Assembly (NCBI GenBank): GCA_046759445.1
Contig: JBHICG010000014.1
Location: 1-62,040 of the forward strand
Reading direction: 5' to 3'
Origin: Candidatus Scalinduaceae bacterium
GTDB taxonomy: Bacteria; Planctomycetota; Brocadiia; Brocadiales; Scalinduaceae
Length of the DNA stretch: 62,040 nucleotides
Part shown: piece after piece, positions 20,097 through 40,032 of the stretch
How positions within the stretch are numbered: position 1 is the stretch's first letter
Layout: the number at the start of each line of letters is the position of its first letter
The notes under the pieces: generated by a model
Told to the model about the DNA's origin: nothing
What the model saw: only the letters and a program-made list of their open reading frames with translations
Database searches by the model: none
Translations under genes and position numbers: made by a program

Positions 20097-20208
20097 AATC
20101 GGCATTGGCTATCATTTTCCTAGTTGATTTTAATGTTTAGCAGTACTATTATAAGTTCAAGAACTTCTACAATCTACTATCGGTTTGCTTAGTTTCATAA
20201 GCAAGGCT
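20097..20208 (+). repeat. degenerate copy of the recurrent promoter/hairpin module
   Basis: aatcggcattggctatcat...TTGATT-17-TATTAT...ttgctt agtttcat aagcaa; aligns with 31775-31944 and 38304-38478. Confidence 0.75.
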
Positions 20209-20262
20209 ATAAAACGGTCGCTGTCCCTATTTATCATAAAACGGTCGCTGTCCCTATTTATC

Positions 20263-20741
20263 ACATAATCAATAAATCAGAAGCGGTTAAGAGGGTTCGG
20301 AAGGAAAAGAACGATGAGGAGATGACAAAGAAAGAAAAGAAAGAATTGACTGAAGAAGAAAAGGAATACAAGAGCAAACGCAAGATGATTCAGGAAAAAC
20401 TCATTAAGTTTGCCACCCGTGTACCTGTATTTATGTATCTTACCGACTATCGCGAACGATGCCTTAAAGATGTTATCACTCAATTGGAACCGGGACTTTT
20501 CAAGAAAGTTACAGGACTGGCTGTAAAGGATTTTGAATTGCTTGTCAGCCTCGGCGTATTTAATAGTGCATTAATGAATGATGCTGTCTATAAATTTAAA
20601 AGATACGAAGATGCAAGCCTCATTTACACTGGTATAAACAAACATAAAGGAGAAGATATTGGTCTTTATGATACAGTTATAAGCTCAAAAGATTACAAAG
20701 CTACATTTGAGAATGTTGCTCAGAAAGCAGAAAACAAATGA
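20263..20741 (+). pseudogene. C-terminal remnant of a restriction endonuclease/helicase subunit
   Basis: KLIKFATRVPVFMYLTDYRERCLKDVITQLEPGLFKKVTGL resembles C-termini of helicase-type restriction subunits. The frame is open upstream of the called Met but has no N-terminal domains. Confidence 0.6.
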
Positions 20742-20925
20742 CGTAACAAGGTACATTCTCAAACAGCCTGTCAATAGGTGTCATCATTGAGTTTCTACTT
20801 AGATGAGTCCGATTATCTTGGTTTTAATTTAAAAAGAGAAAGAATACAAAAAGTTTGTCAACACGCTTTTAGTCTGCAATTTTGATGTCGATCGAAAGTT
20901 TCTTGATATTTAGCGAGAAAACAAA

Positions 20926-23900
20926 ATGTCAGATTCAAAAAAAGAAATTAAAGATATTTTGAGACAATATAAAGAATATCTTAATACTGAAGAAGCTAAA
21001 GAACATCTTCAAACCATGGAGAAAGAGAAAAAAGAAGTCCATGACTTAATGGATAAGCTATCTCAGATGGATAAAAAAGGTGATGAATTTACTGAATTAG
21101 TTTTGTATGGATTGCTTCCTTATTCTAACACAAAAGTTGCTAAAAGAGTGAGTTTGTTTCCTGCTTTTATGAATATAATGATTTTCTTCAAAGCGTATAA
21201 TTACTCTAATGATGAGTGGAATCTGATTGCGAATAGAATTTATACTTTATGCATTAAATTCAAAGAAAATCCAAAAAAAATGTCTGAATATATTGTAGAA
21301 TTTACAAAAGATAAATACCATAGGCGTTTGCAATGTGGATCAATAACTCCAATTTTATTTTGTATTAATGATAATTACCCAATAGTCAATAACAGAGCAA
21401 TAAGAACTTTTAGAAGTATTAAGATTATCTTAGGAGAAAAAGGGAAATTATCTCAAAAACTAATTGATTATACAGATAATATAAAAAAGATTGATAAGCT
21501 AATTGCACATTTGGGATTAGAAATATTAAAAAATCACAATTATCAAGATTTATTTTTCTATTGGTATGATTCTGAAATTCTGAGCGAAGAACGAAGAGCT
21601 TCAAAAAAAGAATCTGAAGAAGGAGAAACAGAAACTGAAACAGAAGAAGAAGTTAAAAAAGAAGAAATAGATATAATACAATTTATTGAAGATGTAAATC
21701 TTGAGAAGGGATTTGATTTTACTCCACACTCATTAGGTGATCCTCAGAGGATAAAGATTAATCAAATCATATCTTCAAGCTCTAAAGCAAGATGGGTTTT
21801 ACCTCATTTTCAGAGATATTTTGATTGGAATAAAAATGATGTTAGGGATTTTTGGGAATCTATTTTTAATGATTATTATGTCGGCTCTTTTCTGTTATGG
21901 GATACAGACAGAAATCCAGAATTGGGAATTCAGCCAATACTAGGGGTGATTAAAAGTGAAGAAGATATTAGGCCTGACTCAATTATTTTAGATGGCCAGC
22001 AAAGAATAACATCTTTGCATTACGCTATTAAAGCACCTAAATTTGCTCTTCGTGGAAGTAAGATACCTGTTTATTTATATGTGAATTTTAATCACTATCT
22101 TAACAGCAATTCTAAATATGGTGTTATTGAAATACATACAAAAAGAATAAGTGAAGAAGATTCTTTTAGACTAATGTTGTTTCCTCTTTATGAATTGGAA
22201 AAATATAGTCAATGGGTGGATAAATTTGAGGATTTTCTTTTATCTCAAACAGAAGACCAAAATAAGGTTAGAAAGATTAGGCGAATTGTAGATAAGAAAT
22301 TAAGACATATGTGGGAAGGTTTTGAAATTCCTTATATTGCACTTCCAGAAAGTATGGAATTGTTTCAGGTAACTGATATATTTGAAAATATAAACACTAA
22401 AGGAAAACTTCTAAGTGTTTTTGACCTTTTAATTGCAAGATTATACAAAAATAATATTGAATTAAAAAAAATTTGGGATGCGACATTAAAAGATTATCCA
22501 AATATAGCAAGATATTCAAAAACAATATCAAAAACCCCGATTTATATTCTTCAAGCGATGTCTTTGCTTTATGAGAAAACTAGCTCAGCAAAAAGAGCAG
22601 ATATTTTAGATATATATTCTAACGTTTATGAAAATTCTGATAGGGATTTTGAAGAAGACTGGGATGAAGTTGCAGAATTTACAAACAAAGCAATTGAAAA
22701 ATTGGAAAATATGAGAGATGGTTTTGGTGTTAAGGATGATAAAGAGCTTCCCTTTGCACCAATGATCCCTGTTTTAACTGCATTATTGAAAGTTATAGAT
22801 GAAAAAGATGCAAAAGCAAAATGTTACAAAAAATTAAGTAAATGGTATTGGTCTGCAATTTTTACAAATGCTTATTCTTCTGCTGCCGATTCCCAAATGA
22901 CACAAGATTTTAAGGAAATTAAAAAGTGGTTTGACAATGATGAAGAAATACCCAAAACAATTACTCAAATGACAAGGGAAGTTCCTAACTTATATTTTAG
23001 AGATATTCAATCTAAATCAAACGCCAAATATAGGGGAGTTATGTCTTTAATAGCTATTGAAGGAGCAAAGGATTTTGATACTTCTCAAACATTAGAAAAT
23101 GCAAGAGGAAATGATAAAGACCATATTTTCCCAAAATCCTTTAATTTTGGTTTTGGTTCAAATAAACACGTTCATTCTATTCTAAATATGACTTGGATGT
23201 CTGATTCAACGAACAGAAGAATAAAAAGATGTAAAAAACCCACTTTATACGTTACTGAGTTCATAAAAACAAAATATAACAATAATAAAGACCAATATCT
23301 TGATATTCTAAAAACGCATTTCATAAATCAAAAAGCGTATGACTATCTTATTGAAGATAACTTTGAAGAATTTATCTCAGAGAGGGAAAAAACTATAATC
23401 TCTAAAATTAAGAAAATCATTGATTATGATGAGGTTAAAAAGGAAAAAACTCTAATTTCACCGGCAAATCCATTTACAAATAGGATAATTTTTCTAAATA
23501 TGCTGAAATCCTGTGATGAATATGTCTATTGGCTAGATAAATATTTTTCTCATTATGGTCTAGAATTACTTGCAGAATCAATTACAAATAATGTGAAGGA
23601 AATTAAGGTTATAATGTCCATTGATAAGGTTGATGACAGTTTTAGAAGTTTATTTAAAAATTTTAAAAAGGAAATGGCAAACAGAAGTATTAATTCTAAA
23701 TTAAAAGTAATTATTGATTCCAAAACAAAATCTTCTATACATGATAGATTCATAATAACCGAATATGACTCTTATAATATTCCATCTCCAGATATAATTG
23801 CAAGAGGGCAATTAAGTGAAATATCTAAAAGTTCCAATAAAGACAAACTAAAAAAAGAATTTGATGATTTATGGAATAAATCAAAAGATATTATACAAGA

Positions 23901-23934
23901 TTGGAATGATATTAAAGATAAATTAAAACAATAG
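20926..23934 (+). CDS. GmrSD-like (DUF262 + HNH-like) modification-dependent nuclease with extra N- and C-terminal domains
   Basis: LPHFQRYFDW, DGQQRITS, FENINTKG (DUF262); DHIFPKS...N (HNH-like); C-terminal WLDKYF...IHDRFII (PLD-like). Confidence 0.78.
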   Translation: MSDSKKEIKDILRQYKEYLNTEEAKEHLQTMEKEKKEVHDLMDKLSQMDKKGDEFTELVLYGLLPYSNTKVAKRVSLFPAFMNIMIFFKAYNYSNDEWNLIANRIYTLCIKFKENPKKMSEYIVEFTKDKYHRRLQCGSITPILFCINDNYPIVNNRAIRTFRSIKIILGEKGKLSQKLIDYTDNIKKIDKLIAHLGLEILKNHNYQDLFFYWYDSEILSEERRASKKESEEGETETETEEEVKKEEIDIIQFIEDVNLEKGFDFTPHSLGDPQRIKINQIISSSSKARWVLPHFQRYFDWNKNDVRDFWESIFNDYYVGSFLLWDTDRNPELGIQPILGVIKSEEDIRPDSIILDGQQRITSLHYAIKAPKFALRGSKIPVYLYVNFNHYLNSNSKYGVIEIHTKRISEEDSFRLMLFPLYELEKYSQWVDKFEDFLLSQTEDQNKVRKIRRIVDKKLRHMWEGFEIPYIALPESMELFQVTDIFENINTKGKLLSVFDLLIARLYKNNIELKKIWDATLKDYPNIARYSKTISKTPIYILQAMSLLYEKTSSAKRADILDIYSNVYENSDRDFEEDWDEVAEFTNKAIEKLENMRDGFGVKDDKELPFAPMIPVLTALLKVIDEKDAKAKCYKKLSKWYWSAIFTNAYSSAADSQMTQDFKEIKKWFDNDEEIPKTITQMTREVPNLYFRDIQSKSNAKYRGVMSLIAIEGAKDFDTSQTLENARGNDKDHIFPKSFNFGFGSNKHVHSILNMTWMSDSTNRRIKRCKKPTLYVTEFIKTKYNNNKDQYLDILKTHFINQKAYDYLIEDNFEEFISEREKTIISKIKKIIDYDEVKKEKTLISPANPFTNRIIFLNMLKSCDEYVYWLDKYFSHYGLELLAESITNNVKEIKVIMSIDKVDDSFRSLFKNFKKEMANRSINSKLKVIIDSKTKSSIHDRFIITEYDSYNIPSPDIIARGQLSEISKSSNKDKLKKEFDDLWNKSKDIIQDWNDIKDKLKQ

Positions 23935-24958
23935 TTGCTTTGCTATTTACTACACAATTTATTAAGAAGCTAGGAACACATCTCGGCACTTGACAAATGA
24001 TTCAATCCATCATGCATTTATCTTTGATACTAGATAATAGATGCCTGATCTGCGATCAGGTTGAATGTTTGTATATGCCCGATCTATGGTTTATATAAAT
24101 ACTGTCTGTCTTTAATTATATACAATCATTTCCATTATAAAAGCTAACCACGGAAATACCAGTCCGATAAGCATTATGGTGGGCATTTACATTTTTGGCA
24201 GGTCCGCAAAAATATTCAATATTGAACATCAAAGATGTGCCCCATAATCTTTCCGAATATCCAATCTCTTAAAACCCTCTTCTTAGGAATTCCGACCCGG
24301 TTCACTCGAAAAGCCCTAAAATCGGAAGGGTTTATTATTACTCAGACATACAAATTGTAGTATAAAAATTGGAAAAAAACTATATATATAGTATATTTTA
24401 CTTGACAAACAATTCCTTTTTGCTTACACTTAGCGCTGGAATAGATAGAAACATTTTTTTTGGGGAGGTAGTTAAGGTTAAATTGGCTTATTAATTTATC
24501 AATGCGATGTTACTCAAGTTGGACACGTTGCCATTACATTAGTTTTTATGGAAGATTATTAGGTTGAATATCGAAATAGCTTTTGTAAGATTAGTAGCAA
24601 GTATATTTTTAGGATTTGATTTTGGCTTTTGTTTTTATAGAGAAGTAAAGTCACTTCTGAACATTTGAATTTCTTGCCTCTCATTTTCAGGCGTTTATAA
24701 ATCCTCTCGTATTCTTCCCAAAGCTACCGAACAGTCTACTTCTAGACATAGTTTTCTATTCTATCGTGACAATATTTTGATTGATAATGAATTGCATTAT
24801 CATGGGAAAATATTTTAATAATTAAATAATAGGTGCTATCCCTATTAAGCTCTGAATTGGATTACTGTTTTTCATTGTGCAGACGAATTTAATGGATAGC
24901 TACTCAACCGGTGAAATACTTGACACTTTTAAAACATCGTAATTTGCTTAATTATAAA

Positions 24959-25831
24959 ATGAGTGTAAGTGATAGGTTTGCAAGGTTGCTTGACAACCTG
25001 AAATTAACGAAAGATCAAAACGGCGATGGTATCACAAAGCATGGTGGTATACGAACCTGTTTAAACAAATACTACTACAACATTTACTCAGGTACCGCAA
25101 ATAGTATGCTTATTGGTTCATGGGGCAAAAAAACTCGTATTCGTCCTCCGAGAGATATTGATTTACTTTTCATTCTTCCTGTATCCGTTTATTATAGATT
25201 CGAGTCTCGTCCTGGCAACAAACAATCTCAACTACTCCAAGAGGTTAAACAAGTTTTGCAGGCTACTTACTCAACCACAAGAATGCGAGGTGATGGACAG
25301 GTTATCGTTGTACAATTCCAATCTCAATCAGTTGAGGTTGTACCCGCTTTTCTACTAACATCAGGGCAATACTGGATTTGCGATACACATAAAGGAGGTA
25401 TTTATAAGACATCGGATCCAAAAGCTGAAATTAATAGAGTGCAAATATCTAACAATGCAACATCTGGTAATACAAGAGACCTGATACGGATGTTGAAATG
25501 TTGGCAAAGTTACTGCAACGTACCAATAAAATCATTTTATCTGGAATTATTATCTATAGATTTTCTACAATCTTGGAGTTATAGAGGGAAAAGCACCGTT
25601 TATTATGATTGGATGACTCGTGATTTTTTTTCCTATTTAACAAGGAAGGTTCAGAATTATTTTTTTGTTCCTGGGACAAACGAACTAATAAATGTTGGAA
25701 GTGAATGGAAAAGTAAAGCCGAGACAGCTTACTCTAGAGCAGTCAAAGCCTGTCATTATGAGGGTAATAATATGTATGTTTATGCAGGAATTGAGTGGCA
25801 AAAGATTTTTGGGACATATATCCCAGCATAG
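24959..25831 (+). CDS. SMODS / CD-NTase-like nucleotidyltransferase
   Basis: GSWGKKTRIRPPRDIDL (GS...DxD), EVVPAF, IKSFYLELL, WQKIFG. Confidence 0.85.
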   Translation: MSVSDRFARLLDNLKLTKDQNGDGITKHGGIRTCLNKYYYNIYSGTANSMLIGSWGKKTRIRPPRDIDLLFILPVSVYYRFESRPGNKQSQLLQEVKQVLQATYSTTRMRGDGQVIVVQFQSQSVEVVPAFLLTSGQYWICDTHKGGIYKTSDPKAEINRVQISNNATSGNTRDLIRMLKCWQSYCNVPIKSFYLELLSIDFLQSWSYRGKSTVYYDWMTRDFFSYLTRKVQNYFFVPGTNELINVGSEWKSKAETAYSRAVKACHYEGNNMYVYAGIEWQKIFGTYIPA

Positions 25832-25839
25832 GATTGTAA

Positions 25840-26367
25840 ATGGCTTCTATAAATGAAGAACTAGCCACTGAATGTAAACGTCAATCTGAGAATTGTCTCT
25901 ATACCTCAACAGCTCTGTTTATTTGGCTAAAATTTCTAAGAGGATTGAGAATTTTCTTTGCTGTGGTTCCTCTTATTTTGGGCTCTTTAGCAAGTTGGAA
26001 GCTTCTTACATCTTTGGACTTAACTAATGTAAAGATTTTTATAGCGGTAATTTCGTTTATTGCTGGTATTATGCCAACTATCTACGCAGTACTAAAAGTT
26101 GATGAGTACTTAGGAAAAGCAGCAAATATTGCTGGAGATTTTAAAAACCTCCAGGACAGATTTAGACAAGCAGCCCTAGTATCTTCAAAGAAACCATTTA
26201 ATGAATTTGAAAAAGACTTTAATAAAATTGTTGAAAGTCTAGAAAGAGCTCGTAGTAATAGCATTACACCACCAGAGTGGTGTTTTAAGAGAGCCCAAGC
26301 AAAGATAAAGAGTGGGGACTATGATTTTGATGTAGATATTATCCGAGCTAAAGAAAAAGAAAACTGA
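25840..26367 (+). CDS. SLATT-family 2-TM effector
   Basis: Two hydrophobic helices plus helical C-terminus, 8 bp downstream of the SMODS gene. Confidence 0.75.
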   Translation: MASINEELATECKRQSENCLYTSTALFIWLKFLRGLRIFFAVVPLILGSLASWKLLTSLDLTNVKIFIAVISFIAGIMPTIYAVLKVDEYLGKAANIAGDFKNLQDRFRQAALVSSKKPFNEFEKDFNKIVESLERARSNSITPPEWCFKRAQAKIKSGDYDFDVDIIRAKEKEN

Positions 26368-28118: not shown

Positions 28119-28119
28119 T

Positions 28120-28491: not shown

Positions 28492-28671
28492 TAAATAGAA
28501 ATATTTGGAAGGTAATGAGGGTTAAATCCCTGATTGAAGATCAGCCTTACTCATATTTATAAATGATTCAATTCATCAGGTCTATCCTTTATAGCTGCAA
28601 ATTATAAACAAATCAATCTTTGCTTTAAGAGAATGAGAAAATCGGCATCATTTTATAAACCCTTCCTATTT

Positions 28672-28708
28672 CCCCTTGATTTTGATATTTCGCCTTACTA
28701 TCATAAAC
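28672..28708 (+). promoter_or_regulatory. sigma70-type promoter, partial copy of recurrent module
   Basis: cccTTGATT-17 bp-TATCATaaac upstream of the rhodanese gene. Confidence 0.65.
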
Positions 28709-28751: not shown

Positions 28752-29306
28752 ATGGCTAAAATCTTACAATTACTTCTTGTTCTGGGGTTTTTAGTTTTTG
28801 CAATGCCCCAGGCCTTCTCTCAAGAACAAAATAAACCCATATGCTCTTCCTGCGAACTGAGTGCAAAAGGTGGTGCAAAATGCCCGATTCATGAAAAGGC
28901 CATATGCAACCACTCAGGTAAAGAATCCTGTTGTAGCCATAAGGGCAAATGGAAACTGTATAAAAAGCTTAAACATGGCCCTTATATTAATACTACCGTA
29001 CTTGAAAACCTGTTGGAAAGTAATCTTCCCATGGTTCTTTTAGATGCCAGGACAGGAAAGTGGGATGATAAAACCCGAATCCCAGGAGCTCAGAGCTTAA
29101 ATGATAAATCTACCAAAGATGAAGTTGAAAAAGTGATTAAAACCAAAGATACCCTGGTGATCACTTATTGTGCCAATTTGAAATGCCCCGCAAGCAACAA
29201 GCTCTATATTCATCTTAAAAAGCTGGGTTACAAAAACGTCCTGGAATATCCCTTCGGTATTGAGAGATGGCTGGAATCAGGAAACGATATTGAGATGGCC
29301 GAATAA
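28752..29306 (+). CDS. exported rhodanese-like domain protein
   Basis: Signal peptide; LDAR...IPGA...YCANLKCPAS...GIERW. Confidence 0.8.
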   Translation: MAKILQLLLVLGFLVFAMPQAFSQEQNKPICSSCELSAKGGAKCPIHEKAICNHSGKESCCSHKGKWKLYKKLKHGPYINTTVLENLLESNLPMVLLDARTGKWDDKTRIPGAQSLNDKSTKDEVEKVIKTKDTLVITYCANLKCPASNKLYIHLKKLGYKNVLEYPFGIERWLESGNDIEMAE

Positions 29307-30557: not shown

Positions 30558-30773
30558 CCTTTTAAGGGAAAATAGGAAAATAGGGTTCCGCCACACAAAC
30601 CGTCGGACAGGCAGCGCCTGTTTTTTGGCATAGAGAAAAGAAGTTATTCGGTATTTGCCTGTCCCGTACGAGCCCCCAATGCTTCCTTGTCAAAAGTAGG
30701 CTCTGTAAGAGCGGAAGCAAGGAATGGGGGCAAGTTTACGGGGTTATTTGATGCAATAAGCTAAAATGTGTAT

Positions 30774-31155: not shown

Positions 31156-31370
31156 AGCTTCCTCTTCTATCAGGAAGACAAGTGTTATCGACGTTAAAAC
31201 GTCTTGGCTTTATCGAACTTCATAGGAGGGGCAGTCATATTAAAATGAAACATCCTAATGGGAAAAAGATTGTTTTTCCTTATCACGATGAAATCGATCG
31301 TTATACTCTTAAAGGCGCTTTGAAAGATGCAGAAGTTGATATTGATGAATTTATTAAAAACATCAAGTAA
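31152..31370 (+). CDS. hicA: HicA-like toxin
   Basis: LKRLGF...RGSHIKM; ATGA overlap with hicB. Confidence 0.85.
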   Translation: MKLPLLSGRQVLSTLKRLGFIELHRRGSHIKMKHPNGKKIVFPYHDEIDRYTLKGALKDAEVDIDEFIKNIK

Positions 31371-31407
31371 AGACTAAGGTAGTCCTTATTAAAACGTTGA
31401 AGATTAT

Positions 31408-31681
31408 TTACGTCTCTCTCCATTCAGCATAATCTTTTGTTGAGACTTTCTGACCACTTTTCAGGAGTGAATATGTCCCACAGTCACTCATAGTACTGAG
31501 TGTCAGTGAGTCAAATACAGGCCCGTCTTTACATACCATCTGTCCGTCACAAACACATTGTCCGCATATGCCAATGCCACATTTCATATATCTCTCTAGT
31601 GACTCCTCACATTGAATATTATTCTTTTTGCAGAATTCATATACCTTGAACATCATGATCTCCGGCACACAGGTATAAATA
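31408..31681 (-). pseudogene. displaced ~270-bp diverged copy of pyrK 3' end
   Basis: PEIMMFKVYEFCK...LERYMKCGIGICGQCVCDGQMVCKDGPVF matches 54568-54841. Confidence 0.9.
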
Positions 31682-31774
31682 ATCTCAAGGTTTTATACAC
31701 CTCCGGGGTGTATTTGGTTTTCATTCAATTGTGTCTTAGATATTTATCAAGCCTTTAACGAATGACAAATAACT

Positions 31775-31944
31775 AATCGGCATTGACTATCATTTTTACT
31801 GTTGATTTTGGTAAACAGCATCACTATCATAAACCTCAGAATTTCTACAATTTTCTAAAATCTTGCTTTTATAAGCAAGACTCATTGCCATATCATATAA
31901 ACATATAATCCATCAAGTGATGGACGAGTAAGATTTTGCTATAT
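31775..31944 (+). repeat. full copy of the recurrent promoter/hairpin module
   Basis: TTGATT-17-TATCAT, aaacctcagaatttc, TCTTGC-ttttataa-GCAAGA, TCCATCA-ag-TGATGGA. Confidence 0.85.
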
Positions 31945-31988
31945 TTGCAACAAGTTTGCCTGCTCATATATTGCAATCATGTTAAAAA

Positions 31989-33212
31989 GTGAATGCCATG
32001 AAAAACAGTCGATTGTATATTGCGATGGTAGGTCTCCCGGCAAGGGGAAAGTCTACCATTGCGACCAAACTCAAAGAAAGCCTGGTGCATGAATCGGTAA
32101 AGACCAGAATCTTCAACAACGGTGATCTGAGAAGAAAGACGATCAGGGGGAACACGTCCTATGCCAAGTTTTTCGATTCAAATAATAGTGAGGGGGTTGC
32201 CATAAGGGAAAAGATCGCACTTATTAATATGGAAAAGGCTCAAAAGTTTCTCAATGGCGCAGGAAACGTTGCAATTTTGGATGCATCAAATGTCAGCCGG
32301 AACAGAAGGGAGAGAATCCAGTCCAGGTTAAATGACCACCCCATCCTGTTTATTGAGTGTGTGAACAAAGATGAAGAGATCCTTAGTGCGAGCATACTCA
32401 GAAAGATCGATCTGGCCGAATTCGGACATCTAACCGGGGAAGAGGCGATTAAGGGTTTCAGGGAAAGGATATCCTATTACCAATCCATTGAGGAACCCCT
32501 GGAAAGGGAAAGGAATTACATAAGGCTCGATTCCCTCCACAACAGTGTCATGGGGGAAAACCTATCCGACAGTATTCCCTACTATGACCAAATCAGGGAC
32601 TTCCTGGTCACAAACACGGTAAAGAACCTTTACCTGATTCGTCATGGTGAAACATACTATAACCTGGAGGACCGCATAGGCGGAGACTCGGATTTGACCG
32701 AAAAAGGCTGGGCCCAAGCTAGGGCACTTGCCAATTATTTTAAAAAGAAAAGAATCCCTTTGATATTCACCAGTCAGAAAAAACGGACACATCAAACCGC
32801 TTCACCCATCAAAGAAGTTCAGGAAGAGTGTACCATCATCCCCCTGGCAGAATTTGACGAGATCGACAGCGGAGTCTGCGAATCTATGAGTTACGAGAAA
32901 ATCAGGACACAGATGACGCATGTGTACTCTGAAAGGAAAAAGGACAAGTATAATTATGTCTATCCGGAGGGAGAAGGGTATGTCACCATGCAGGAGCGGA
33001 TAAATCGTGGTATCAAAAAAGCCCTGTACCTGAGCAACCCTTCGGATAACATTATGATTATTGGCCACAGGGCCGTGAACCGTATGATCCTTTCTCACTT
33101 TATGTTTCGTAGAGAAGAGGACGTTCCCTTTATCTACATTCCCCAGGATAAGTTTTACTACATCTCCACCACGCAAAACAAAAAACATTTTCAATTAAAG
33201 AGGTTCAAGTAG
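31989..33212 (+). CDS. bifunctional 6-phosphofructo-2-kinase/fructose-2,6-bisphosphatase-like protein
   Basis: N-terminal MVGLPARGKS P-loop, FNNGDLRR, ILDASN; C-terminal RHGE phosphatase with DKYNYVYPEGE. Confidence 0.85.
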   Translation: MNAMKNSRLYIAMVGLPARGKSTIATKLKESLVHESVKTRIFNNGDLRRKTIRGNTSYAKFFDSNNSEGVAIREKIALINMEKAQKFLNGAGNVAILDASNVSRNRRERIQSRLNDHPILFIECVNKDEEILSASILRKIDLAEFGHLTGEEAIKGFRERISYYQSIEEPLERERNYIRLDSLHNSVMGENLSDSIPYYDQIRDFLVTNTVKNLYLIRHGETYYNLEDRIGGDSDLTEKGWAQARALANYFKKKRIPLIFTSQKKRTHQTASPIKEVQEECTIIPLAEFDEIDSGVCESMSYEKIRTQMTHVYSERKKDKYNYVYPEGEGYVTMQERINRGIKKALYLSNPSDNIMIIGHRAVNRMILSHFMFRREEDVPFIYIPQDKFYYISTTQNKKHFQLKRFK

Positions 33213-33399
33213 TTTTTTTAACTTCCCCCACAACACATCTTGCCTGTAATAGCCCTGTGAGTGAATCCTGATATAGTAAGAGGCAATTTTACAAAATAGC
33301 CATAAGGTAAAAAGGGTAACCTCGCCTGACGGACGGGCAGGTAAAATCTGCTTGCTCTACTATTAGTTTTGCGGGAATTAAGATTTGACAACAATACAA

Positions 33400-33512
33400 A
33401 CAGTATTCCAGGGAGATTTGATAAAGGTAAGGTTTTTCTTTAGGTTTGAGCCATTCGGAATTGGTTATCATTGTGATTCCCCTTGATTTTGATAGTATTT
33501 AGTTTATCATAT
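33400..33512 (-). pseudogene. 5' fragment of an unknown gene (MITNSEWLKPKEKPY...) with its divergent promoter; longest version of the recurrent gene-start motif
   Basis: ATG at 33471 reads MITNSEWLKPKEKPYLYQISLE; same start motif at 20115, 31793, 34144, 34466, 36226 and 38330. Confidence 0.55.
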
Positions 33513-33671
33513 AGTATATGAGAATAGAAATTTCATATAACAAGATTGAATATAGAAATATTTTGAGGGGAAGGTGATTTTATGGGAGTTTCTTTATAGA
33601 GGCGAATGTGTTTATAACACGTATGCCTGTTTTTATTTTTTTAAATTTTAATGATTTTAAGGAGATAGAAG

Positions 33672-33980
33672 ATGAGTAAATACTTAAAACTTGGCTACCT
33701 TTCAATGATTCCTGTAATCTTTGGAATAGTAATAGTAGTAATGAGTGCGTCTGTGGTTAAAGCTGGCGAAGAAGAGGTTGTACTAAACGTCAAGGGGATG
33801 ACGTGCAGTATGTGTTCTGGTGCGGTATATACTGCACTCATGAATTGCAAGGGTGTTAAGGATGCTGAGGTTAGCCATGAAAAAGGGAAGGCAGTTATAA
33901 AGGTTGAAGAAGGCAAGGCAAATACCGAGGAACTTATTAAGGCTGTCGAAAAGGCAGGATTCACAGCATCGAAAAGCTAA
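33672..33980 (+). CDS. exported heavy-metal-associated (HMA, MerP/CopZ-like) protein
   Basis: GMTCSMC metal-binding motif after a signal peptide. Confidence 0.88.
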   Translation: MSKYLKLGYLSMIPVIFGIVIVVMSASVVKAGEEEVVLNVKGMTCSMCSGAVYTALMNCKGVKDAEVSHEKGKAVIKVEEGKANTEELIKAVEKAGFTASKS

Positions 33981-34180
33981 CAACATGTTTAAGGTGCAAA
34001 AGTTTCATCCTCTGGCAATGTCTTAATATAAAGTAAGATTATTTTTAACTATGACCACCCCCTTTCCTTTTCCACATCTTTTGCAAGGAGAGGAAGGGGG
34101 TATGGTTTTCACTCAATATCGAGCCAGCCGGGATTGAGTATCATGATTGATACTTTTTGGGTTGATCAATGGGCATTTTT

Positions 34181-34378
34181 CTAAAGAACGTTATCTATTT
34201 TTTCTCGTGCTTTATTTAAAATGTCTGAATACAATTCAAATTTTATAGAAGTTTCTTTGTCTTGCCCTTTTAAATCATCTGCTTTTAATCGGCAGATTTT
34301 GCTTAGACTGGTAACAATTTCTGGCAAAAAATATTCATCAACAAGATATTCAAGTTTTTCCATGTCGGTATCATTCAT
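34181..34378 (-). CDS. small hypothetical protein
   Basis: GGGAG RBS upstream; 65+ aa; flanked by two copies of the gene-start repeat. Confidence 0.5.
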   Translation of the reverse strand: MNDTDMEKLEYLVDEYFLPEIVTSLSKICRLKADDLKGQDKETSIKFELYSDILNKAREKIDNVL

Positions 34379-34462
34379 TTCTTCATTTCTCCCATAAAAA
34401 AGTTAAAGTTACATTCTAAAACACCTGTCAAGTTCTTCATTTGAGCCAGTCGGGGTTGATTA

Positions 34463-35980
34463 TCATTTTTCCTCACTTTTCCTTTTCCACCCTAAATAAA
34501 GGTCTGTATATTCACCGTGTTTCCAGAAGTCATAAGCAGAATGTTCTATGCCTAATTTCTTTTCTATCTCTGCAAAGCGTTTGAGTCGGCTGGCCTCTGC
34601 CTTTATCTGCAGCAGCCATCTATCCTGAGCCCACTCCCAGTAACCGTAAATGGGGCTGTAGACTGCACCATGAGCCTTAGCCTTGTAGATAGCATCTGTA
34701 ATGTCCACAAGAAGTTCGTAGGCCAACCTTTCTATTTCAGAAATGTTGTATTTCCTAACTGAGCCACCTGGGAGAAGGCTAAAGTTATGGCCACCCATCC
34801 AGTCTGGAGCTAAATCAACAGGCATAGGGTCGAGCAGTTCGTTTTTATATAAATCCACAAGCAGTGCCATAGCCTCCCTGTATTTAGTGAAACTGAGTTT
34901 GACCGATTCATCCATGGCCGAAAGCTGATCCCTGGCAAATCGCTGGGAGTGACATCCCTTACATAGTGTCACCCACCACTCCCGTATTTCTTTATATCTA
35001 TTTGCATTTCTATCCACCAGGGAAGTGCCCATATAGGTGTACACAGTGGAAGCATTTCTCACATTGTGATCGCCGTTGTTCATGTGACAATATGCACATG
35101 TAGGCACCTTATAGTTTTTGGCATTTAAGGGTTGTGTCCAATCCCATTCATGCATTTCAGACTGGTATATTTGCCCATGATAAGACTGCATATACATCTC
35201 GTGCTCGTACTGCTCAGGGCCTGAATGGCAAACGGCACAACTATTAGTCTTACGCGCCTCTGTGACTGAAAACTCATGTCTGGAATGGCAACCATCACAA
35301 CGGTTTTCTGCGATAGCGTGGCAAGTAAGGCAGCCGGCAACTTCCTCCGGTGGCTTCTCAATCTGACAGCCTTGCTCACACAGGTCAAGGCTGTAGGCAT
35401 GTGCATGGCTACCCTGTCCACCGTCTCTGTGCCCTTTGAGCTGCTGTGGATGACATTCACCACAAGTGTTGTATGAAGGCATGGTGAGCTTTATATGATT
35501 ATTGCCGTGACATTTGTCACACCCCACCACTTCCTTTCCCTCGCCTGGTGAGGCATGTTTACTACGCTTCCACAATGCCACTATGCCAGGGTTTTCCACC
35601 GTATGGCAGACTATGCACTGATGACCTTCGTACCATCCTTCGACAGAACTTCCAGGATGAAATTGATCATTATTATAATAGTAGTCTGGATCATACCATC
35701 GTATAAGGGGTAAGAAGTTGTAAAGATCACCGTATTTTCCCTTCCCAGGAAATAGCTCTTTAGGGCCTGTATAATAAGCTGTAAGCCCGCCCAAGTGATA
35801 AACATCACCGGAATCATCTGGACCTACTTTTTGGTGTAATAGCTTGGCCATCTCTTTCTGGAAGACGTGCGTCTTTTCGACAGCATAAGTATCAGGGATC
35901 TTACAGAGAGTTAGTATTAGAAAAACAACGACCCACGTACCTCCTGCGACAAGGGTGTTTTTAGTTTTTTTCATTATCAT
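34463..35980 (-). CDS. octaheme hydroxylamine oxidoreductase (HAO/HOX)-like cytochrome c
   Basis: Eight CxxCH motifs (CIVCH, CDKCH, CGECH, CLTCH, CDGCH, CAVCH, CAYCH, CKGCH), signal peptide, DFWKHGEY C-terminus recalled from anammox HOX. Confidence 0.88.
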   Translation of the reverse strand: MIMKKTKNTLVAGGTWVVVFLILTLCKIPDTYAVEKTHVFQKEMAKLLHQKVGPDDSGDVYHLGGLTAYYTGPKELFPGKGKYGDLYNFLPLIRWYDPDYYYNNDQFHPGSSVEGWYEGHQCIVCHTVENPGIVALWKRSKHASPGEGKEVVGCDKCHGNNHIKLTMPSYNTCGECHPQQLKGHRDGGQGSHAHAYSLDLCEQGCQIEKPPEEVAGCLTCHAIAENRCDGCHSRHEFSVTEARKTNSCAVCHSGPEQYEHEMYMQSYHGQIYQSEMHEWDWTQPLNAKNYKVPTCAYCHMNNGDHNVRNASTVYTYMGTSLVDRNANRYKEIREWWVTLCKGCHSQRFARDQLSAMDESVKLSFTKYREAMALLVDLYKNELLDPMPVDLAPDWMGGHNFSLLPGGSVRKYNISEIERLAYELLVDITDAIYKAKAHGAVYSPIYGYWEWAQDRWLLQIKAEASRLKRFAEIEKKLGIEHSAYDFWKHGEYTDLYLGWKRKSEEK

Positions 35981-36611
35981 CCCTCCTATTCTGTTTTTTT
36001 CTTTTTATTAAAAATAAACCGAGCTTTCTGTTAACTATTGCTAAATGGATAAACAGAAAAATTATAGTTTTTACAGAATTAATACTTATATCATAAATTG
36101 ATTGTTTTAGAAATCTGTATTTATCTTTAATACACCTTTATTCAATATAAAAAAATAAATGAGAAAGGGAAGAATAGGTAGTTTTCCTAGAACTTTAGGT
36201 TTCTGACAGTCGGGGTTGACTATCATAATTGATAAATGACTTGTTTGATTATTGAGGATTAAGCACAAGGATTTTAAAACTTGCATTAATCTGAGGAAAT
36301 AGAGCTCTACTAATTTATTATAACAAAATAACAAAAAATGTTATGGTTTAGTAACAAAATGTAATATTGGGATTAGCTGGATTTTATAAGTGTTAAACTA
36401 ACATACACTTAAAAACTTGCCATTTTTGTAAAATTTTTGGCATCACATTTGTTATTAATTACTTTAGAACAATTTAATTACTTGCAATAAGGGCAAACCC
36501 TAAGTGATCAGGAAGCATATTCAACATTTTCCTTTATTACCAGAAAGTGTCCCGCTGAGATACAATATGACTACTGAACTTTTAATAAAAAGGGAAGAAG
36601 GGATACGATTT

Positions 36612-36791
36612 ATGAAAATAGGTGAGTTTCTTGTTAAAAATAATTATGTTACACAAGAGGAGGTAAACGAGGCATTGGAATTTCAAAAACGTAACAAAGA
36701 TCAATATATAGGAGAGATTCTTGTTAAGATGAATGTAATTACAAAAGAACAGTTAATTGAATATGTTTGTGAATATGAAGAGAAAGTATGA
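36612..36791 (+). CDS. small MshEN/GspE-N-like repeat protein
   Basis: KIGEFLVKNNYVTQEEVNEAL and YIGEILVKMNVITKEQL tandem motifs. Confidence 0.6.
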   Translation: MKIGEFLVKNNYVTQEEVNEALEFQKRNKDQYIGEILVKMNVITKEQLIEYVCEYEEKV

Positions 36792-36879
36792 ATCAATGGG
36801 AACAGCGATTGCAAAAACTTCCAAACGATTATGAGCATTATTCTGTAAACTTAGTGTAATTCCAATGCTATTGATTTAA

Positions 36880-37107
36880 ATGACATCTATCGAAAAAACT
36901 TATAAACACTGTAAATGTTTTGACACATATATATGCCTACTTAGAAAATACCATGACCTGATGGACCAAATAAAGTTGTTTTGTATATTATCCATTAACC
37001 GTAGATTGCCCCACGTAGTAACCGCTGAAGAATACTTTGAAGTCATAGAAAAGTGCAACAAGGTTTGTACTAGTTGTGATAAATTCAAAAGTAAAAAAAC
37101 TGATTAA
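36880..37107 (+). CDS. Cys-rich hypothetical protein
   Basis: 75-aa ORF; no recognised family. Confidence 0.35.
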   Translation: MTSIEKTYKHCKCFDTYICLLRKYHDLMDQIKLFCILSINRRLPHVVTAEEYFEVIEKCNKVCTSCDKFKSKKTD

Positions 37108-37377
37108 AGTAAAGGAAATAACCGTTAAAAGCGATTGTAATGACCCTAACTTTTTTGCAAAGGAGACAATCCTATGTGCTACATAAAATCAACTTGCCCT
37201 TTTCCCCTGATTGCGGGGAAGGGAATATATGAAATATCGTATACAGCGACACACTGTCTGCATGGTTCAGTGTTAAATTCAAGAGAAAGAAAGAGAGGGT
37301 TGTAGAAATAACTTTTCAGTTTCATGATTGATTATTATACTGCAAATAAACGATAATCTGTTAAGGAGGGTGGAAAA

Positions 37378-37803
37378 ATGTCAGCACTGATTGATGAACT
37401 TAAGAAAGAACATTCTGGAATCATTGCCACACTCAACGAAGTAAAAGAAATTGATATTCTTTCAAAAGAAGGACATAACAAGCTCATGTCTGTAAACGCA
37501 CTTTTGCTTACACATCTCCAAAAGGAGGACGAGCAACTTTATCCAGTTCTCAGAAAAGAAGCGGAAAATGATAAGCAGCTAGAACACACATTAAATTTAT
37601 ACGCAATGGATATGGAGAATGTTTCAAGAGCTGTGCTAGAATTCTTTGACAAATACTTTAGAGGAAAAATTCCAGACAAGGAGCTTCAAAAAGAGTTTGA
37701 AAACCTTTCTGTAGCTCTTAGTAAGAGGATAAGGAATGAAGAGGATATTCTTTATGATGAGTATGAAATGATGAATTTACAATACATTGGTGGCATTGAT
37801 TGA
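37378..37803 (+). CDS. hemerythrin-like domain protein
   Basis: ELKKEH...HLQKEDEQLYP...RIRNEEDILY; AGGAGG RBS. Confidence 0.8.
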   Translation: MSALIDELKKEHSGIIATLNEVKEIDILSKEGHNKLMSVNALLLTHLQKEDEQLYPVLRKEAENDKQLEHTLNLYAMDMENVSRAVLEFFDKYFRGKIPDKELQKEFENLSVALSKRIRNEEDILYDEYEMMNLQYIGGID

Positions 37804-37891
37804 ATCGAATGAAAGACAAAACGAAAAGCAATTAGAGGATTCTAAGAAGGAAGGAAAAGGATTGCAGTAAAGTCCGTGAAGTTTTATTTCC

Positions 37892-38170
37892 CTACTCTAA
37901 AACTTCCTGAGCGGTTGTATTTATCATTTCTTTTTTTATGTTCTTCAATGTCCTTTTTTTAGACCTGACCCAGAAGCGATAACCGTAAATAATGACGGTA
38001 ATGATAATATATGGACTCATAAAAATAATTAGATTTCCTACTGTAGTATTCCATAGTCTATGGAAAAAAATTAATGCAGTACCACCAAGAAAAATATATA
38101 TTAAATAAATAATAAAATTACCATAAATTTGTTTATACTTGTTTTTTCTTATCATATTCCCCATAACCAA
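37892..38170 (-). CDS. small membrane hypothetical protein
   Basis: Two hydrophobic segments and a basic tail. Confidence 0.4.
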   Translation of the reverse strand: MVMGNMIRKNKYKQIYGNFIIYLIYIFLGGTALIFFHRLWNTTVGNLIIFMSPYIIITVIIYGYRFWVRSKKRTLKNIKKEMINTTAQEVLE

Positions 38171-38303
38171 ATTTCTTTTGCATATCAGTAATTATATTCT
38201 CTGTGTTGCCTTCCTTCTAAATTTCTTCAGAATTTCTATATGATTTTGTTTATTTAATTATCGACTGCTGAGTTGATTATTTAAGAAGTTATTTTTTTTT
38301 GAG

Positions 38304-38478
38304 TTTGAGTCATTCGGAATTGGTTATCATTTTACCCTTGATTTTGATGATTGGCTGACTATTATAAACCTCAGAATTTTCAAATCTACTAAAGTCTTGC
38401 TTTCATAAGCAAGACTCATTAACATACCTTTTAGAAATATAATCCATCAAGTGATGGAAGAGGAAAATTTCTCATATA
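38304..38478 (+). repeat. full copy of the recurrent promoter/hairpin module
   Basis: gagtcattcggaattggttatcat...TTGATT-16-TATTAT...AGTCTTGC-tttcataa-GCAAGACT...TCCATCAAGTGATGGA. Confidence 0.85.
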
Positions 38479-38518
38479 CACATATTCGTGGGCAAGTTGG
38501 TCTCTTATCTTTGTAATC

Positions 38519-39250
38519 ATGCCAAATGATTCAAAATTAATAAAATGCTTCAATTGTGGCCAGACTCACCGTCTTGGTGATTACGGCCAAAATACGGGTA
38601 TCATATGTACGGGCTGTGGTAAGAAAATGGAACCCTTGATTTTTGATAAAATATGTGAAGGTGATAAAAGGGGATTTCTTACGCTTCTCGGATATTTTTC
38701 AATCACCGCCCTAATTGGTGTAATGGGTAGCATGATGATGGTGCATGGCTGGAACTTTTTGGTAACTTTTACCATGTTGGGTGGGGTTGTTTACCTGATA
38801 GGTAAAATATTTATGAGTAAGTATAAGATTATCGAAATAGAAGAATACCTGCCGGATAAGATAGCGCATGATAACGCGGATGCTCATTGTTCCAGCAGTT
38901 TCGATCGTTTGGTTGTCGCTTCCGTGAATGAATTGCCGCAAAAAATAAGAAAACGCTTAGAAGATGTATCAATAGTAGTAGAAGACAGGCCAAATCCTTT
39001 TGTGCTGGGAAAACTAAAATTGAAATCGAACCGGGTATTACTTGGTTTATTTCAAGGGGTGCCTTTAAATAAAAAGAGTGTATGGCATTCTGCTACTATG
39101 CCGGAAAAGATCACTATATACCAGAAAAATATAGAGGCCATCTGCCATTCTGATGAGGAGATTAAACATAGAATAAAAAAAGTGGTTCGCCACGAGGTGG
39201 CACATTTTGTTGGATTTACTGAAGAACAAGTAAGAAGGTTGGGTTATTGA
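38519..39250 (+). CDS. membrane-anchored zincin-like metallopeptidase (DUF1025) with N-terminal zinc ribbon
   Basis: CxxC/CxxC, two TM helices, LLGLFQGVPL, ITIYQKNI, HEVAH. Confidence 0.8.
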   Translation: MPNDSKLIKCFNCGQTHRLGDYGQNTGIICTGCGKKMEPLIFDKICEGDKRGFLTLLGYFSITALIGVMGSMMMVHGWNFLVTFTMLGGVVYLIGKIFMSKYKIIEIEEYLPDKIAHDNADAHCSSSFDRLVVASVNELPQKIRKRLEDVSIVVEDRPNPFVLGKLKLKSNRVLLGLFQGVPLNKKSVWHSATMPEKITIYQKNIEAICHSDEEIKHRIKKVVRHEVAHFVGFTEEQVRRLGY

Positions 39251-39326
39251 TAGGCGTCTTCTTAACTGCAAAAATATACAAATATTTTTAAATTGTGAAC
39301 AACCTAAAATAAATTGAGGAACAACT

Positions 39327-39911
39327 ATGACAAATGAAAAGGGACATATCCGTCGGGACATAGAGAAGCTGAGACCCGGTGAGCTTACGATTCTGGGGGC
39401 CATTGTTACAGCTATGATTGCAGTCGTTATTGCAGTTGTGTTAGAGCAGAATAAAGCCGGGACAGAAATTGATCCAGAGAAAGACGTCTATCTATTCCTT
39501 CACGGGAGAACGGATCTGCGGGAAAAAGCCGAGACCGCTCTCGTTGCATACGGATTTTCAAAGGAGAAGATTACCGTGGCATCGTCAGAAAACATTGGAA
39601 GCGTGGGCGATTATATGGCAATGCTCTGGATGCCGCCAGCCCCGGATCACATAATAATTCAACAGATAACCAGGGTTGATGAAGTAGAGCCGGAAAAAAT
39701 CTTTGGACTCTGGAAAGGCGTTTCAAAAAAGGACATAGATACTGTTTCTTTAGAAAAGGATAAAAGAGAAGAAAGAATTCACCGCAAAGGCGCAAAGAAA
39801 AGAATATTTCGGCCGGGATTACAGGATAATCAGGGATTAATACAGATACACACAGAAGATGTAACCCCCCAAAAACCTGTTGATTTTAGTAAACGGCATA
39901 ACTATTATTAA
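39327..39911 (+). CDS. hypothetical membrane-anchored protein; C-terminus reads through repeat DNA
   Basis: One TM helix; last ~45 codons overlap simple repeats and the recurrent module. Confidence 0.55.
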   Translation: MTNEKGHIRRDIEKLRPGELTILGAIVTAMIAVVIAVVLEQNKAGTEIDPEKDVYLFLHGRTDLREKAETALVAYGFSKEKITVASSENIGSVGDYMAMLWMPPAPDHIIIQQITRVDEVEPEKIFGLWKGVSKKDIDTVSLEKDKREERIHRKGAKKRIFRPGLQDNQGLIQIHTEDVTPQKPVDFSKRHNYY

Positions 39912-40032
39912 CCTCAGAATTTCCAATTCTTCTAAAGTCTTGCCTTCGGCTGAAGTAAATTCAGACATAAGCAAGACTCATTACCATATATCATATAGAC
40001 ATATAACCCATCAATTGATGGATAAGAAAATT
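39877..40032 (+). repeat. copy of the recurrent promoter/hairpin module with ~20-bp palindromic insertion in the first hairpin loop
   Basis: TTGATT-17-TATTAT, aacctcagaatttc, AGTCTTGC[cttcggCTGAAgtaaaTTCAGacataa]GCAAGACT, CCATCAATTGATGG. Confidence 0.85.

Follow-up and report, generated by a model that had tools for sequence, protein, structure and literature searches.

The DNA analysed here (the window) is the 62,040-nt contig JBHICG010000014.1 (C14) of the 3.62-Mb, 145-contig assembly GCA_046759445.1, labelled G000, from a Candidatus Scalinduaceae bacterium. Between uvrC (15789–17684) and pyrK/pyrD (54568–56389) lies a stretch rich in copies of a 120–170-nt module, a promoter-like sequence followed by a leader, and each copy stands before a different gene. 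A first-pass annotation made from the sequence had read these copies as a portable promoter and leader RNA through which new genes are captured, functionally like an integron but possibly independent of a recombinase. Here we report that the array in the window is one cluster of a portable promoter found genome-wide, not an integron-like machine, and that the module probably arose as the control region of a small orphan gene, which we denote p103.

Module copies and their cargo genes

A repeat search of the whole window recovered the module copies as families D4, D8, D10, D13 and D17. Together with an nhmmer profile built from eight seed copies and used on the window and the rest of G000, it places four long copies on the plus strand (20087–20215, 31766–31935, 38304–38469 and 39876–40032), and nhmmer adds two partial copies on the same strand, at 28670–28708 (E 0.0044) and 33447–33494 (E 0.16). 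These are the copies that the first-pass annotation had picked out, the long ones with starts at 20097, 31775, 38304 and 39877, and all of them point right. With their flanks and cargo, they are as follows.

20087–20262, plus strand: hybrid module copy, with a p103 5′ stub (minus strand), TTGATT-17-TATTAT, a hairpin-1 variant and two tandem 27-nt units ATAAAACGGTCGCTGTCCCTATTTATC (20209–20262; repeat search and alignment); followed by a 139-amino-acid open reading frame (ORF; 20322–20741) and a GmrSD_N gene (20926–23934)
28670–28708, plus strand: promoter-only partial copy, TTGATT-17-TATCAT, upstream of a rhodanese gene (28752–29306)
31766–31945, plus strand: full module copy, with promoter (31802–31830), hairpin 1 (31859–31882) and hairpin 2 (31909–31924); p103 stub at 31766–31793 (minus strand), stop after 6 codons; followed by a PFK-2/FBPase-2 gene (31998–33212; 6PF2K/His_Phos_1)
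33322–33512, plus strand: p103 fragment and promoter, the p103 5′ part (33322–33471, minus strand, ~50 codons) abutting the promoter (33483–33510); followed by an HMA gene (33672–33980); from 33530 on, the sequence is homologous to the locus of an HMA paralogue on contig C1
38292–38478, plus strand: full module copy, with promoter (38338–38365), hairpin 1 (38393–38416) and hairpin 2 (38443–38458); p103 stub at 38292–38331 (minus strand), stop in codon 7; followed by a Zincin_1 gene (38519–39250)
39783–40089, plus strand: module copy with a different upstream segment, promoter (39880–39908) and hairpin 2 (40007–40022); followed by a PLD-SNF2 helicase gene (40128–43355) and then an Eco57I-type methylase gene

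Pairwise BLASTN matches the 31775 copy to the 38304 copy at 80.6% over 160 nt (E 1.7e-33), to the 39877 copy at 75.7% over 148 nt (E 8e-25) and to the 20097 copy at 70.8% over 120 nt (E 1.3e-9); with E values of 1e-9 to 1e-33, chance resemblance of the long copies is excluded. A six-way alignment of the window copies gives the common core TTGATTTT...TAT(C/T)AT...AACCTCAGAATTT. The promoter TTGATT-16/17-TAT(C/T)AT was located at the four promoter positions listed above, and its hexamers are also legible at 20121 and 28673. Other details of the first-pass description needed correction. The sequence AACCTCAGAATTT, given for the long copies, holds for three of the four, the 20097 copy reading AAGTTCAAGAACTTC; the first hairpin is AATCTTGC at 31775 and, in the 20097 copy, GGTTTGC..GCAAGGCT; and the palindrome TCCATCA..TGATGGA is in three of the four long copies, as described. 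The downstream genes are unrelated to one another, again as described.

In the 20097 copy, the module promoter is followed by a leader that belongs to a second promoter family and consists of hairpin 1 plus 27-nt units. The 39877 copy carries a 24-nt hairpin inserted into the hairpin-1 loop (39936–39978), and a terminator-like hairpin (40032–40048) followed by one AAAACGGACGCTGTCC unit (40063–40089). Its upstream segment, 39783–39876, takes the place of the p103 stub and is common to copies before a KAP NTPase gene (C5), a DUF4011 helicase gene (genome G024) and another gene (genome G020).

Putative promoter, leader and p103

Among 21 long copies from four genera, the alignment columns without variation include G-A-T in the −35 box and, in the −10 box, T, A and the final T. 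In a larger set of 88 distinct copies, TAnnnT is kept at the −10 place in 85, and in 67 it also stands on the opposite strand one base on (−10 region TATTATA). The ~25 nt after the −10 box are almost invariant across genera. Copies tend to be oriented towards the following gene: a same-strand gene lies downstream of 8 of the 9 G000 copies outside the window, the ninth being a partial match inside an ORF; a same-strand ORF starts within 600 nt of 30 of 31 first copies from other genomes; and a same-strand ORF of at least 60 amino acids starts within 400 nt in 76 of the 88 copies, with 63–69% at random or intergenic-like control positions. Pfam assigns the cargo to a wide range of families (GmrSD, PFK-2, HMA, rhodanese, zincin, PLD-helicase, KAP NTPase and RadC/HsdR), and further copies precede AbiEii-like, AbiU2, Mrr, Cas6, Cas_NE0113, Usp, ammonium transporter and aroA genes and many genes of unknown function. 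This diversity, with the distribution described below, agrees with the idea of a portable promoter and leader placed before unrelated genes. Two further candidates for function in the leader were rejected on inspection. A second promoter (TATAAT) before hairpin 2 has C as its last base in several copies, and the hexamer most like a −35 box (TTGTCA/TTGCCA) precedes it by only 13 nt; a leader peptide from the hairpin-2 ATG has neither a conserved frame nor a conserved length.

The leader holds two stems of different standing. Hairpin 1 (AGTCTTGCTT..AAGCAAGACT) has a 10-bp stem and a loop of 4 to 28 nt, and is present in 12 of the 21 long copies and 16 of the 88 distinct ones. In genome G014 its slot is filled by an unrelated, GC-rich insert of ~190 nt; this insert (G014:C42, locus L069, 6729–7037) holds an internal direct repeat TCTTGAAGCT... 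and may be a small mobile repeat. Hairpin 1 also stands behind a different promoter on contigs C50, C77 and C56, followed by AAAACAGTCGCTGTCCC units. This second promoter family, TTGATTGACGATGAATTACGTTGTTATGGG (C50:1834–1912, C77:4729–4791 and C56:23289–23332), has hairpin 1 at the same distance, and hairpin 1 therefore seems to be a module common to several leader families. Hairpin 2, (T/A)CCATC-NNNN-GATGGA, has a 6-bp stem and a variable 4-nt loop and is kept in 77 of the 88 copies, with the compensatory variants CTCATC..GATGAG, TCTATC..GATAGA and CCCCTC..GAGG. No pair is changed on both sides in the 21-copy set. In the 88 copies, 8 of 16 pairs show a double change, against 3.1 in shuffled alignments (reached by 1 of 500 shuffles), with 18 double-change cells against 4.1 (0 of 500) and a covariation score of 0.057 against 0.038 (0 of 500); support from covariation is moderate, because the structure guided the alignment and four to six double-change pairs also arise in slid controls.

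The leader consists of local stems only, without a large RNA structure. Where hairpin 1 is present, leaders fold better than shuffled sequences (z −2.2 to −4.0), and those without it fold like shuffles (z −0.25 and −0.36). As hairpin 1 is missing from 72 of the 88 copies, the suggestion that the transcribed ~110 nt could form a structured non-coding RNA is not supported on a global scale. Nor does the module belong to a known Rfam family: nothing reaches the gathering score in the whole window, and nothing E ≤ 1 in 38200–40200.

Read on the minus strand, the stretch of 20–40 nt preceding the −35 box starts with ATG and encodes MIxN(P/S)(D/E)WLKPK. This is the beginning of p103, which is intact (103 codons) on contig C1 and present as many N- and C-terminal fragments across G000. 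All 28 family genomes contain it, with 1–16 matches each, and an alignment of 11 sequences across genera has a mean column identity of 72%. Its fold is predicted with a pLDDT (predicted local distance difference test) of 85.4. The protein has no Pfam match at E ≤ 1, no match in the PDB by Foldseek at E ≤ 0.001 and no usable match in the Atlas; its best VIA-align score, to a lipase foldase (Z 5.5), is within the stated noise range of the tool. A p103 profile run against 1.84 billion representatives gave 416 clusters at E ≤ 0.001, most of those listed covering the profile only in part.

Of 13 loci where p103 is intact or nearly so, five have it divergent from a module promoter, with its Shine–Dalgarno sequence AGAGGAAAAATG abutting the −35 box; at others, p103 is the second gene of an operon, between a TPR protein gene and a rhodanese gene. 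Because the sequence before the −35 box is the divergent p103 5′ stub, we take the module to be the intergenic control region of p103, reused; the symmetry of its −10 sequence suggests that this region is probably bidirectional. Classing of the 88 copies by tblastn gave 1 with intact p103, 20 with a stub, 65 with none and 2 at a locus edge, figures that undercount stubs: the search overlooks those shorter than ~12 codons, and the 38304 copy, for instance, scored ‘none’. In eight copies from seven genomes (mini copies), the last ~20 codons of p103 are joined to the −35 box, and the flanks on both sides are unrelated between loci. The mini copies are mutually 56–82% alike and form no clear single clade; a single origin of this derivative was considered and set aside, as the identity matrix is uninformative. 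Three more p103 segments lie in the window away from the promoter copies.

34106–34145, minus strand: solitary p103 start stub, 11 codons (repeat family D5)
34428–34467, minus strand: solitary p103 start stub, 9 codons (repeat family D5), with the TTTTTCCTC junction and no promoter
36188–36511, minus strand: p103 5′ stub with an alternative upstream region of its own; 84% identity to the intact-p103 locus on contig C1

All three are further p103 relics, and we read those at 34106 and 34428 as scars at cassette junctions. Such stubs explain a set of short spurious ORFs and would mark cassette boundaries in Scalindua defence islands.

Distribution, exchange and possible routes of spread

The module is scattered across the genome and specific to the family. 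G000 holds 13 copies at E ≤ 1e-7, nine of them outside the window on seven other contigs (C19, C5, C16, C2, C15 (three), C140 and C32; nhmmer). The 31775 copy is 87% identical to the C5 copy over 142 nt and 91% identical to the C16 copy over 97 nt. BLASTN with the 31760–31945 copy finds matches in 21 of 24 other family genomes, in four genera, whereas none of 16 genomes from four further families of the order gives one. At E ≤ 0.001, a covariance model derived from the 21 long copies detects 240 matches, spread over 27 of the 28 family genomes at 1–19 per genome with a match. An exact-pattern scan of the genomes of 185,579 species returned six loci, two of them in Candidatus Scalindua rubra records and the other four close to the number expected by chance for a 21-mer; searches of viral contigs, plasmid collections and phage collections returned no module match. 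Co-oriented arrays of copies occur in the window and at G005:C214, G014:C42, G024:C97, G020:C24 and G001:C152, and the order of cargo genes varies between related genomes. Among the papers listed by a search of the literature on Scalindua repeats and promoters, none deals with this element, judging by titles and abstract openings.

Comparison of orthologous loci shows the module to be separable from the genes behind it. The PFK-2 gene occurs in only 9 of 28 family genomes, with protein identities of 87–93%, and at the eight orthologues elsewhere there is no module: homology begins ~14 nt before the ATG, and the eight loci have three different upstream regions. Promoters have thus been swapped at this gene. 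The identity of PFK-2 exceeds that of uvrC, whose protein is only 72–81% identical between genera, which points to recent horizontal spread of a regulator gene of central metabolism.

The zincin cassette, with its module, recurs in genomes G005 and G014, of other genera. In the comparison with G005, identity is 65–90% over 38290–38447 (stub, promoter and hairpin 1) and 98–100% from 38448; with G014, it is 53% and then 95–100% from 38460. The uvrC proteins of these genomes are 81% and 78% identical to that of G000. The high-identity tract ends ~25–40 nt past the stop codon (~39290), a right-hand boundary at which no matching palindrome was found. At least two exchanges are needed, because three different left contexts join one near-identical gene. 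The PLD-helicase cassette and its module recur in genome G013, where identity rises after hairpin 1 and not after hairpin 2, and class-beta copies share a further 50–60 nt beyond hairpin 2 before they diverge. Because these boundaries differ from that of the zincin cassette, breakpoints lie inside the module and at no one fixed base. The left end of a copy is a p103 stub of varying length or another segment, and the right end varies by class; neither terminal inverted repeats nor fixed ends were found in the module copies. Although it is dispersed genome-wide, which in part goes against the first-pass reading, the module is therefore not an ordinary miniature inverted-repeat transposable element (MITE), an identity excluded by the lack of inverted termini and by the variable ends. 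No target-site duplication was noticed at mini or long copies, inspected without an empty-site/filled-site pair.

Taking these observations together, we think it probable, with real room for doubt, that the module is a portable p103 promoter and leader reshuffled by recombination among accessory-gene cassettes. It would be a family-specific, multi-copy promoter of the sigma-70 type with a conserved 5′ leader of 80–130 nt, native to the space between p103 (~100 amino acids, minus strand) and its neighbour, where TATTATA would act as the −10 box on both strands. Copies, often with the first 6–50 codons of p103, would by now precede dozens of unrelated genes, including many horizontally exchanged accessory or defence genes, and would supply them with a transcription start and a leader. 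Hairpin 2, maintained, and hairpin 1, optional, would most likely form a local RNA element acting in stability, processing or protein binding. Spread would occur by recombination, without a dedicated recombinase or transposase, and breakpoints would fall inside copies because copies act as homology patches between unrelated cassettes. The six copies in the window would then reflect a variable uvrC–pyrK island that has accumulated promoter-bearing cassettes.

Several points weigh against this account. Recombination between copies fails to explain the first arrival at a locus without flanking homology, and the mini derivatives at unrelated flanks fit copy-and-paste mobility better. At least two independent exchanges of the zincin cassette have their left boundary in common, no more than ~16 nt from hairpin 2, which hints at a preferred, possibly site-specific, break. 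Because copies within G000 are at most ~91% identical by BLASTN, no very recent move in this genome is visible. The orientation bias is moderate (86% against 63–69%), among copies that are related and not independent. Promoter activity is read from conservation: promoter-like sites in 31400–40200 are no commoner than in shuffled sequence (34 against 29.0 ± 4.9 by consensus scan), and we therefore base the promoter call on conservation and not on the scan. Three RNA runs cover part of 31001–41000, as contigs without readable starts, ends or strands. Joints at module edges in them (31745>31981, 39923>39988 and 31845>39988) have only 20–28 letters on a side and were set aside as evidence, and gaps in coverage such as 20747–23414 carry no information.

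The mini copies would be accounted for if p103 and its outward promoter were a small mobile element that copies itself in a transposition-like manner, with stub and mini copies as non-autonomous forms. The same internal deletion recurs in eight copies from seven genomes with non-homologous flanks, p103 is multi-copy and often broken (1–16 matches per genome, many of them N- or C-terminal fragments, with most of the listed members of the 416 clusters partial), and on the p103 side homology breaks off abruptly where the stop codon is reached. Such an abrupt end would also result from purifying selection on old paralogues, however, and the deletion lies between 7–8-nt microhomologies, TTTCCTTT and TTTCCTCT, and could therefore recur. 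The mini copies are old, only 56–82% alike, and not clearly one clade. The element would have no terminal inverted repeats, a variable right end and no target-site duplication seen, and p103 has no Pfam match, structural relative or recognisable nuclease or recombinase motif. We regard this explanation as unlikely. A link to the ends of IS200/IS605 elements or to PATEs, whose subterminal hairpins flank or accompany a Y1 (HUH) transposase, is not supported by the positions of Y1 transposase genes: G000 has 22 Y1_Tnp (IS200-type) matches, several in frames of ~320–330 amino acids, longer than is usual for the family, and one lies ~800 nt downstream of the C19 copy, with none near the other 12 of the 13 G000 copies. 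A Y1 gene is the first ORF after one copy in genome G022, and exact hairpin-1 sites are absent from the 2 kb around Y1 genes. A bolder form of the mobile-element idea, to us decidedly unlikely, makes p103, promoter and leader a new kind of minimal selfish gene-activating unit, devoid of transposase and inverted repeats, that would establish itself and its internally deleted mini forms at further loci, with the hairpin as preferred breakpoint for the exchange of entire genes between genera, a promoter-first and recombinase-free counterpart of the integron; if it were true, anammox bacteria would capture and express defence and accessory genes through such a system.

Selection rather than mobility could maintain the leader if hairpin 2, in the form of RNA or of a palindrome in the DNA, were bound by one regulator and the leader were a common regulatory device of an accessory, defence and stress regulon. 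The retention of hairpin 2 in 77 of 88 copies, its clear compensatory variants, the excess of double changes (8 of 16 pairs against 3.1 in shuffles; score 0.057 against 0.038) and the almost invariant ~25 nt after the −10 box across genera all fit this proposal. The 70–90% identity over 120–170 nt, spacers and p103 codons included, is far more than an operator or a hairpin of 16 nt needs and shows that the DNA is of common descent. The 21-copy set has no double change, the structure-fitted alignment yields 4–6 double-change pairs even in slid controls, no candidate regulator gene travels with the module, and a cargo that runs from restriction enzymes to amt and aroA is no obvious regulon. We judge it improbable.

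An integron-like system, in which hairpin 2 is a recombination site served by a recombinase encoded elsewhere in the genome, would explain the co-oriented arrays in several genomes and the three zincin cassettes that differ to the left of hairpin 2 and are 95–100% identical to its right, and G000 does encode seven tyrosine (PF00589) and two serine recombinases. None of these is on any module-bearing contig, breakpoints vary (after hairpin 1 for PLD, 50–60 nt beyond hairpin 2 for class beta), the right-hand zincin boundary lacks a matching palindrome, the repeat lies 5′ of genes and brings their promoters, unlike attC, and a module follows uvrC within the examined stretch in only 4 of 21 genomes; we consider this very unlikely. 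Least probable, in our estimate, is an independent multi-copy small-RNA gene with a promoter, a ~100-nt RNA and a weak terminator at hairpin 2 that just happens to adjoin other genes. Class-beta copies do have a short T-rich stretch, GGATATGCTTTTCAT, after hairpin 2, and the 39877 class has its terminator-like hairpin at 40032–40048. Orientation is nevertheless biased towards the downstream gene, hairpin 2 has six pairs (three of them G-C) with the T-rich stretch set apart from the stem and is not terminator-like on the plus strand, and leaders without hairpin 1 are not unusually stable and match no Rfam family.

Known systems and the uvrC–pyrK island

Putative mobile promoters (PMPs) were reportedly described by Matus-Garcia, Nijveen and van Passel in 2012. 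They are homologous stretches of non-coding DNA of at least 50 nt, ~80% or more identical, that stand before unrelated genes within genomes and across genera, with no known mobile element or Rfam family attached and an unknown route of mobilisation (PMC3575422). Copies of the present module are 87% identical over 142 nt, 91% over 97 nt and 81% over 160 nt, and the genes behind them are non-homologous (6PF2K, KAP_NTPase, RadC, Zincin_1, PLD-helicase and GmrSD_N). By the published definition the module is a new, well-delimited PMP, promoter action itself remaining putative. It differs from other PMPs in having a traced source, the p103 control region, with the stub retained, and in its long conserved leader with a maintained hairpin, its family-wide count and its clustering in variable islands; its mosaic record is unusually clear.

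Correia elements (CREE/NEMIS) of Neisseria and the ERIC and REPIN repeats resemble the module in being short repeats dispersed between genes; they can provide promoters and, once transcribed, place hairpins in mRNA leaders. Correia elements have the make-up of a MITE, including terminal inverted repeats and duplication of a TA target, and occur in either orientation; the module, by contrast, lacks inverted repeats at its termini, its ends vary, and it is oriented to the downstream gene. The three kinds of repeat are named in PMC3575422.

Integrons and clusters of attC sites lacking integron-integrases (CALINs) resemble the module arrays in having co-oriented, unrelated single-gene cassettes, a recurring structured repeat and varying cargo. 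Integron cassettes are promoterless and carry attC, an imperfect inverted repeat of 57–141 nt, at their 3′ end, where IntI recombines attI and attC. The module repeat is 5′ of the gene, holds the promoter, has short near-perfect stems (6 and 10 bp) and is found genome-wide. Judged without an attC model, it is not attC-like: the repeat is 5′ with a promoter, and no palindrome follows the zincin gene. That no integrase lies in the window agrees with the first-pass statement: 59 of the 67 ORFs of at least 55 amino acids were scanned against Pfam, and none belongs to an integrase or resolvase family, intI included, the seven PF00589 matches of the genome all being on other contigs. The sole transposase among the scanned ORFs, DDE_Tnp_1 at 289–1518, is far from the module copies. 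The likeness to an integron is thus loose, because each cassette brings its own promoter and both an attC-like 3′ site and a platform are lacking, and the analogy is mostly unsupported.

Symmetric bidirectional promoters, which arise from symmetry of the −10 sequence, are the subject of a preprint (bioRxiv 10.1101/2020.01.31.928960). In the same arrangement, one AT-rich −10 element of the module, putatively bidirectional, reads TAnnnT on both strands between divergent genes (p103 and cargo); known cases are single promoters, whereas the module is a propagated family. JUMPstart/ops elements, which recruit RfaH-type NusG paralogues, share with the module a short conserved leader common to unrelated, often horizontally acquired operons, and no link between the two emerged. 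The nusG-rplK-rplA block occurs twice in G000, on two different small contigs (C79:136–468 and C105:5061–5393), possibly through assembly redundancy, and a third, stand-alone NusG paralogue lies at C39:29614–30144, near no copy of the module. This paralogue is found in 23 of 24 family genomes and in 3 of 16 outside the family, the latter having no module by BLASTN; its distribution does not track the module, and as a leader-binding antiterminator it is kept only as a lead.

To our knowledge, anammox bacteria are not yet genetically manipulable, and next to nothing has been characterised of their promoters. A promoter and leader as compact as this one, found throughout the family before ~40 kinds of gene, would be a candidate expression cassette and a handle on how these bacteria switch on newly acquired genes. 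It would also be one of the few mobile-promoter families with a nameable origin, the control region of one orphan gene, and as its junctions can be read base by base, promoter movement without a transposon would be testable in population metagenomes.

The island itself is a patchwork of segments with paralogues of 75–95% identity elsewhere in the genome. Its left edge and an internal duplication are marked by the following features.

17284–17672, 18598–18691 and 19602–20007, plus strand: three copies of the uvrC 3′ end, 83–91% identical, at the left edge of the island
31417–31681, minus strand: duplicate fragment of the pyrK 3′ end, 81% identical to 54577–54841, adjoining the 31766 copy on its upstream side

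Between the uvrC 3′ copies stand a DUF433/PIN-like pair and a HigB/helix–turn–helix pair, an arrangement that looks like serial insertion of small toxin–antitoxin units at the end of uvrC. The nearby segment 30578–30657 (73–80 nt) is duplicated at 51324–51403; with the pyrK fragment, it gives two duplications 20–23 kb apart and 81–86% identical that bracket part of the island. Module arrays also lie downstream of uvrC in genomes G014, G013 and G016, and a uvrC fragment stands inside the G005:C214 array. Overall, a module follows uvrC in 4 of 21 genomes (2–12.6 kb examined; G002, with 493 nt downstream of uvrC, was left out), the gene content differs widely, and the uvrC 3′ end as a general hotspot was rejected on this count.

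Other repeats accompany the module in this region. The motif AAAACGG(T/A)CGCTGTCC, often in tandem units of 27–36 nt, directly precedes start codons at 13 G000 sites, three of them in the window (within 20209–20262 and 40063–40089) and the others on C6, C8, C16, C25, C45, C50 and C55; it may be a separate operator or leader element. A GC-rich nested palindrome, CCCC(G/A)CT(G)CTTTCTTGC...GCAAGAAGCGGGG, occurs at 30666–30730 and 18723 and at more than 40 sites genome-wide, and its inner arms resemble hairpin 1 of the module.

The defence genes of the island fall in two blocks, 20926–26367 and 40128–48957. They include the GmrSD_N gene (1,002 amino acids), a SMODS nucleotidyltransferase with a 175-amino-acid partner and the PLD-SNF2 helicase, together with an Eco57I/TaqI_C methylase, an AAA_15/AAA_21 ATPase and an HNH nuclease. 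Within the methylase gene (43358–46795), four 39-nt and three 28-nt units (44057–45208) each hold a short palindrome (CAAGCTTCCAGCTTGAG; CAAGATGCTTG). A multihaem cytochrome gene (34463–35980, minus strand) lies within the variable island and is flanked by p103 stubs, and its product has a weak match to Hao_C, the C-terminal family of hydroxylamine oxidoreductase (E 1.6e-05, below the Pfam cut-off).

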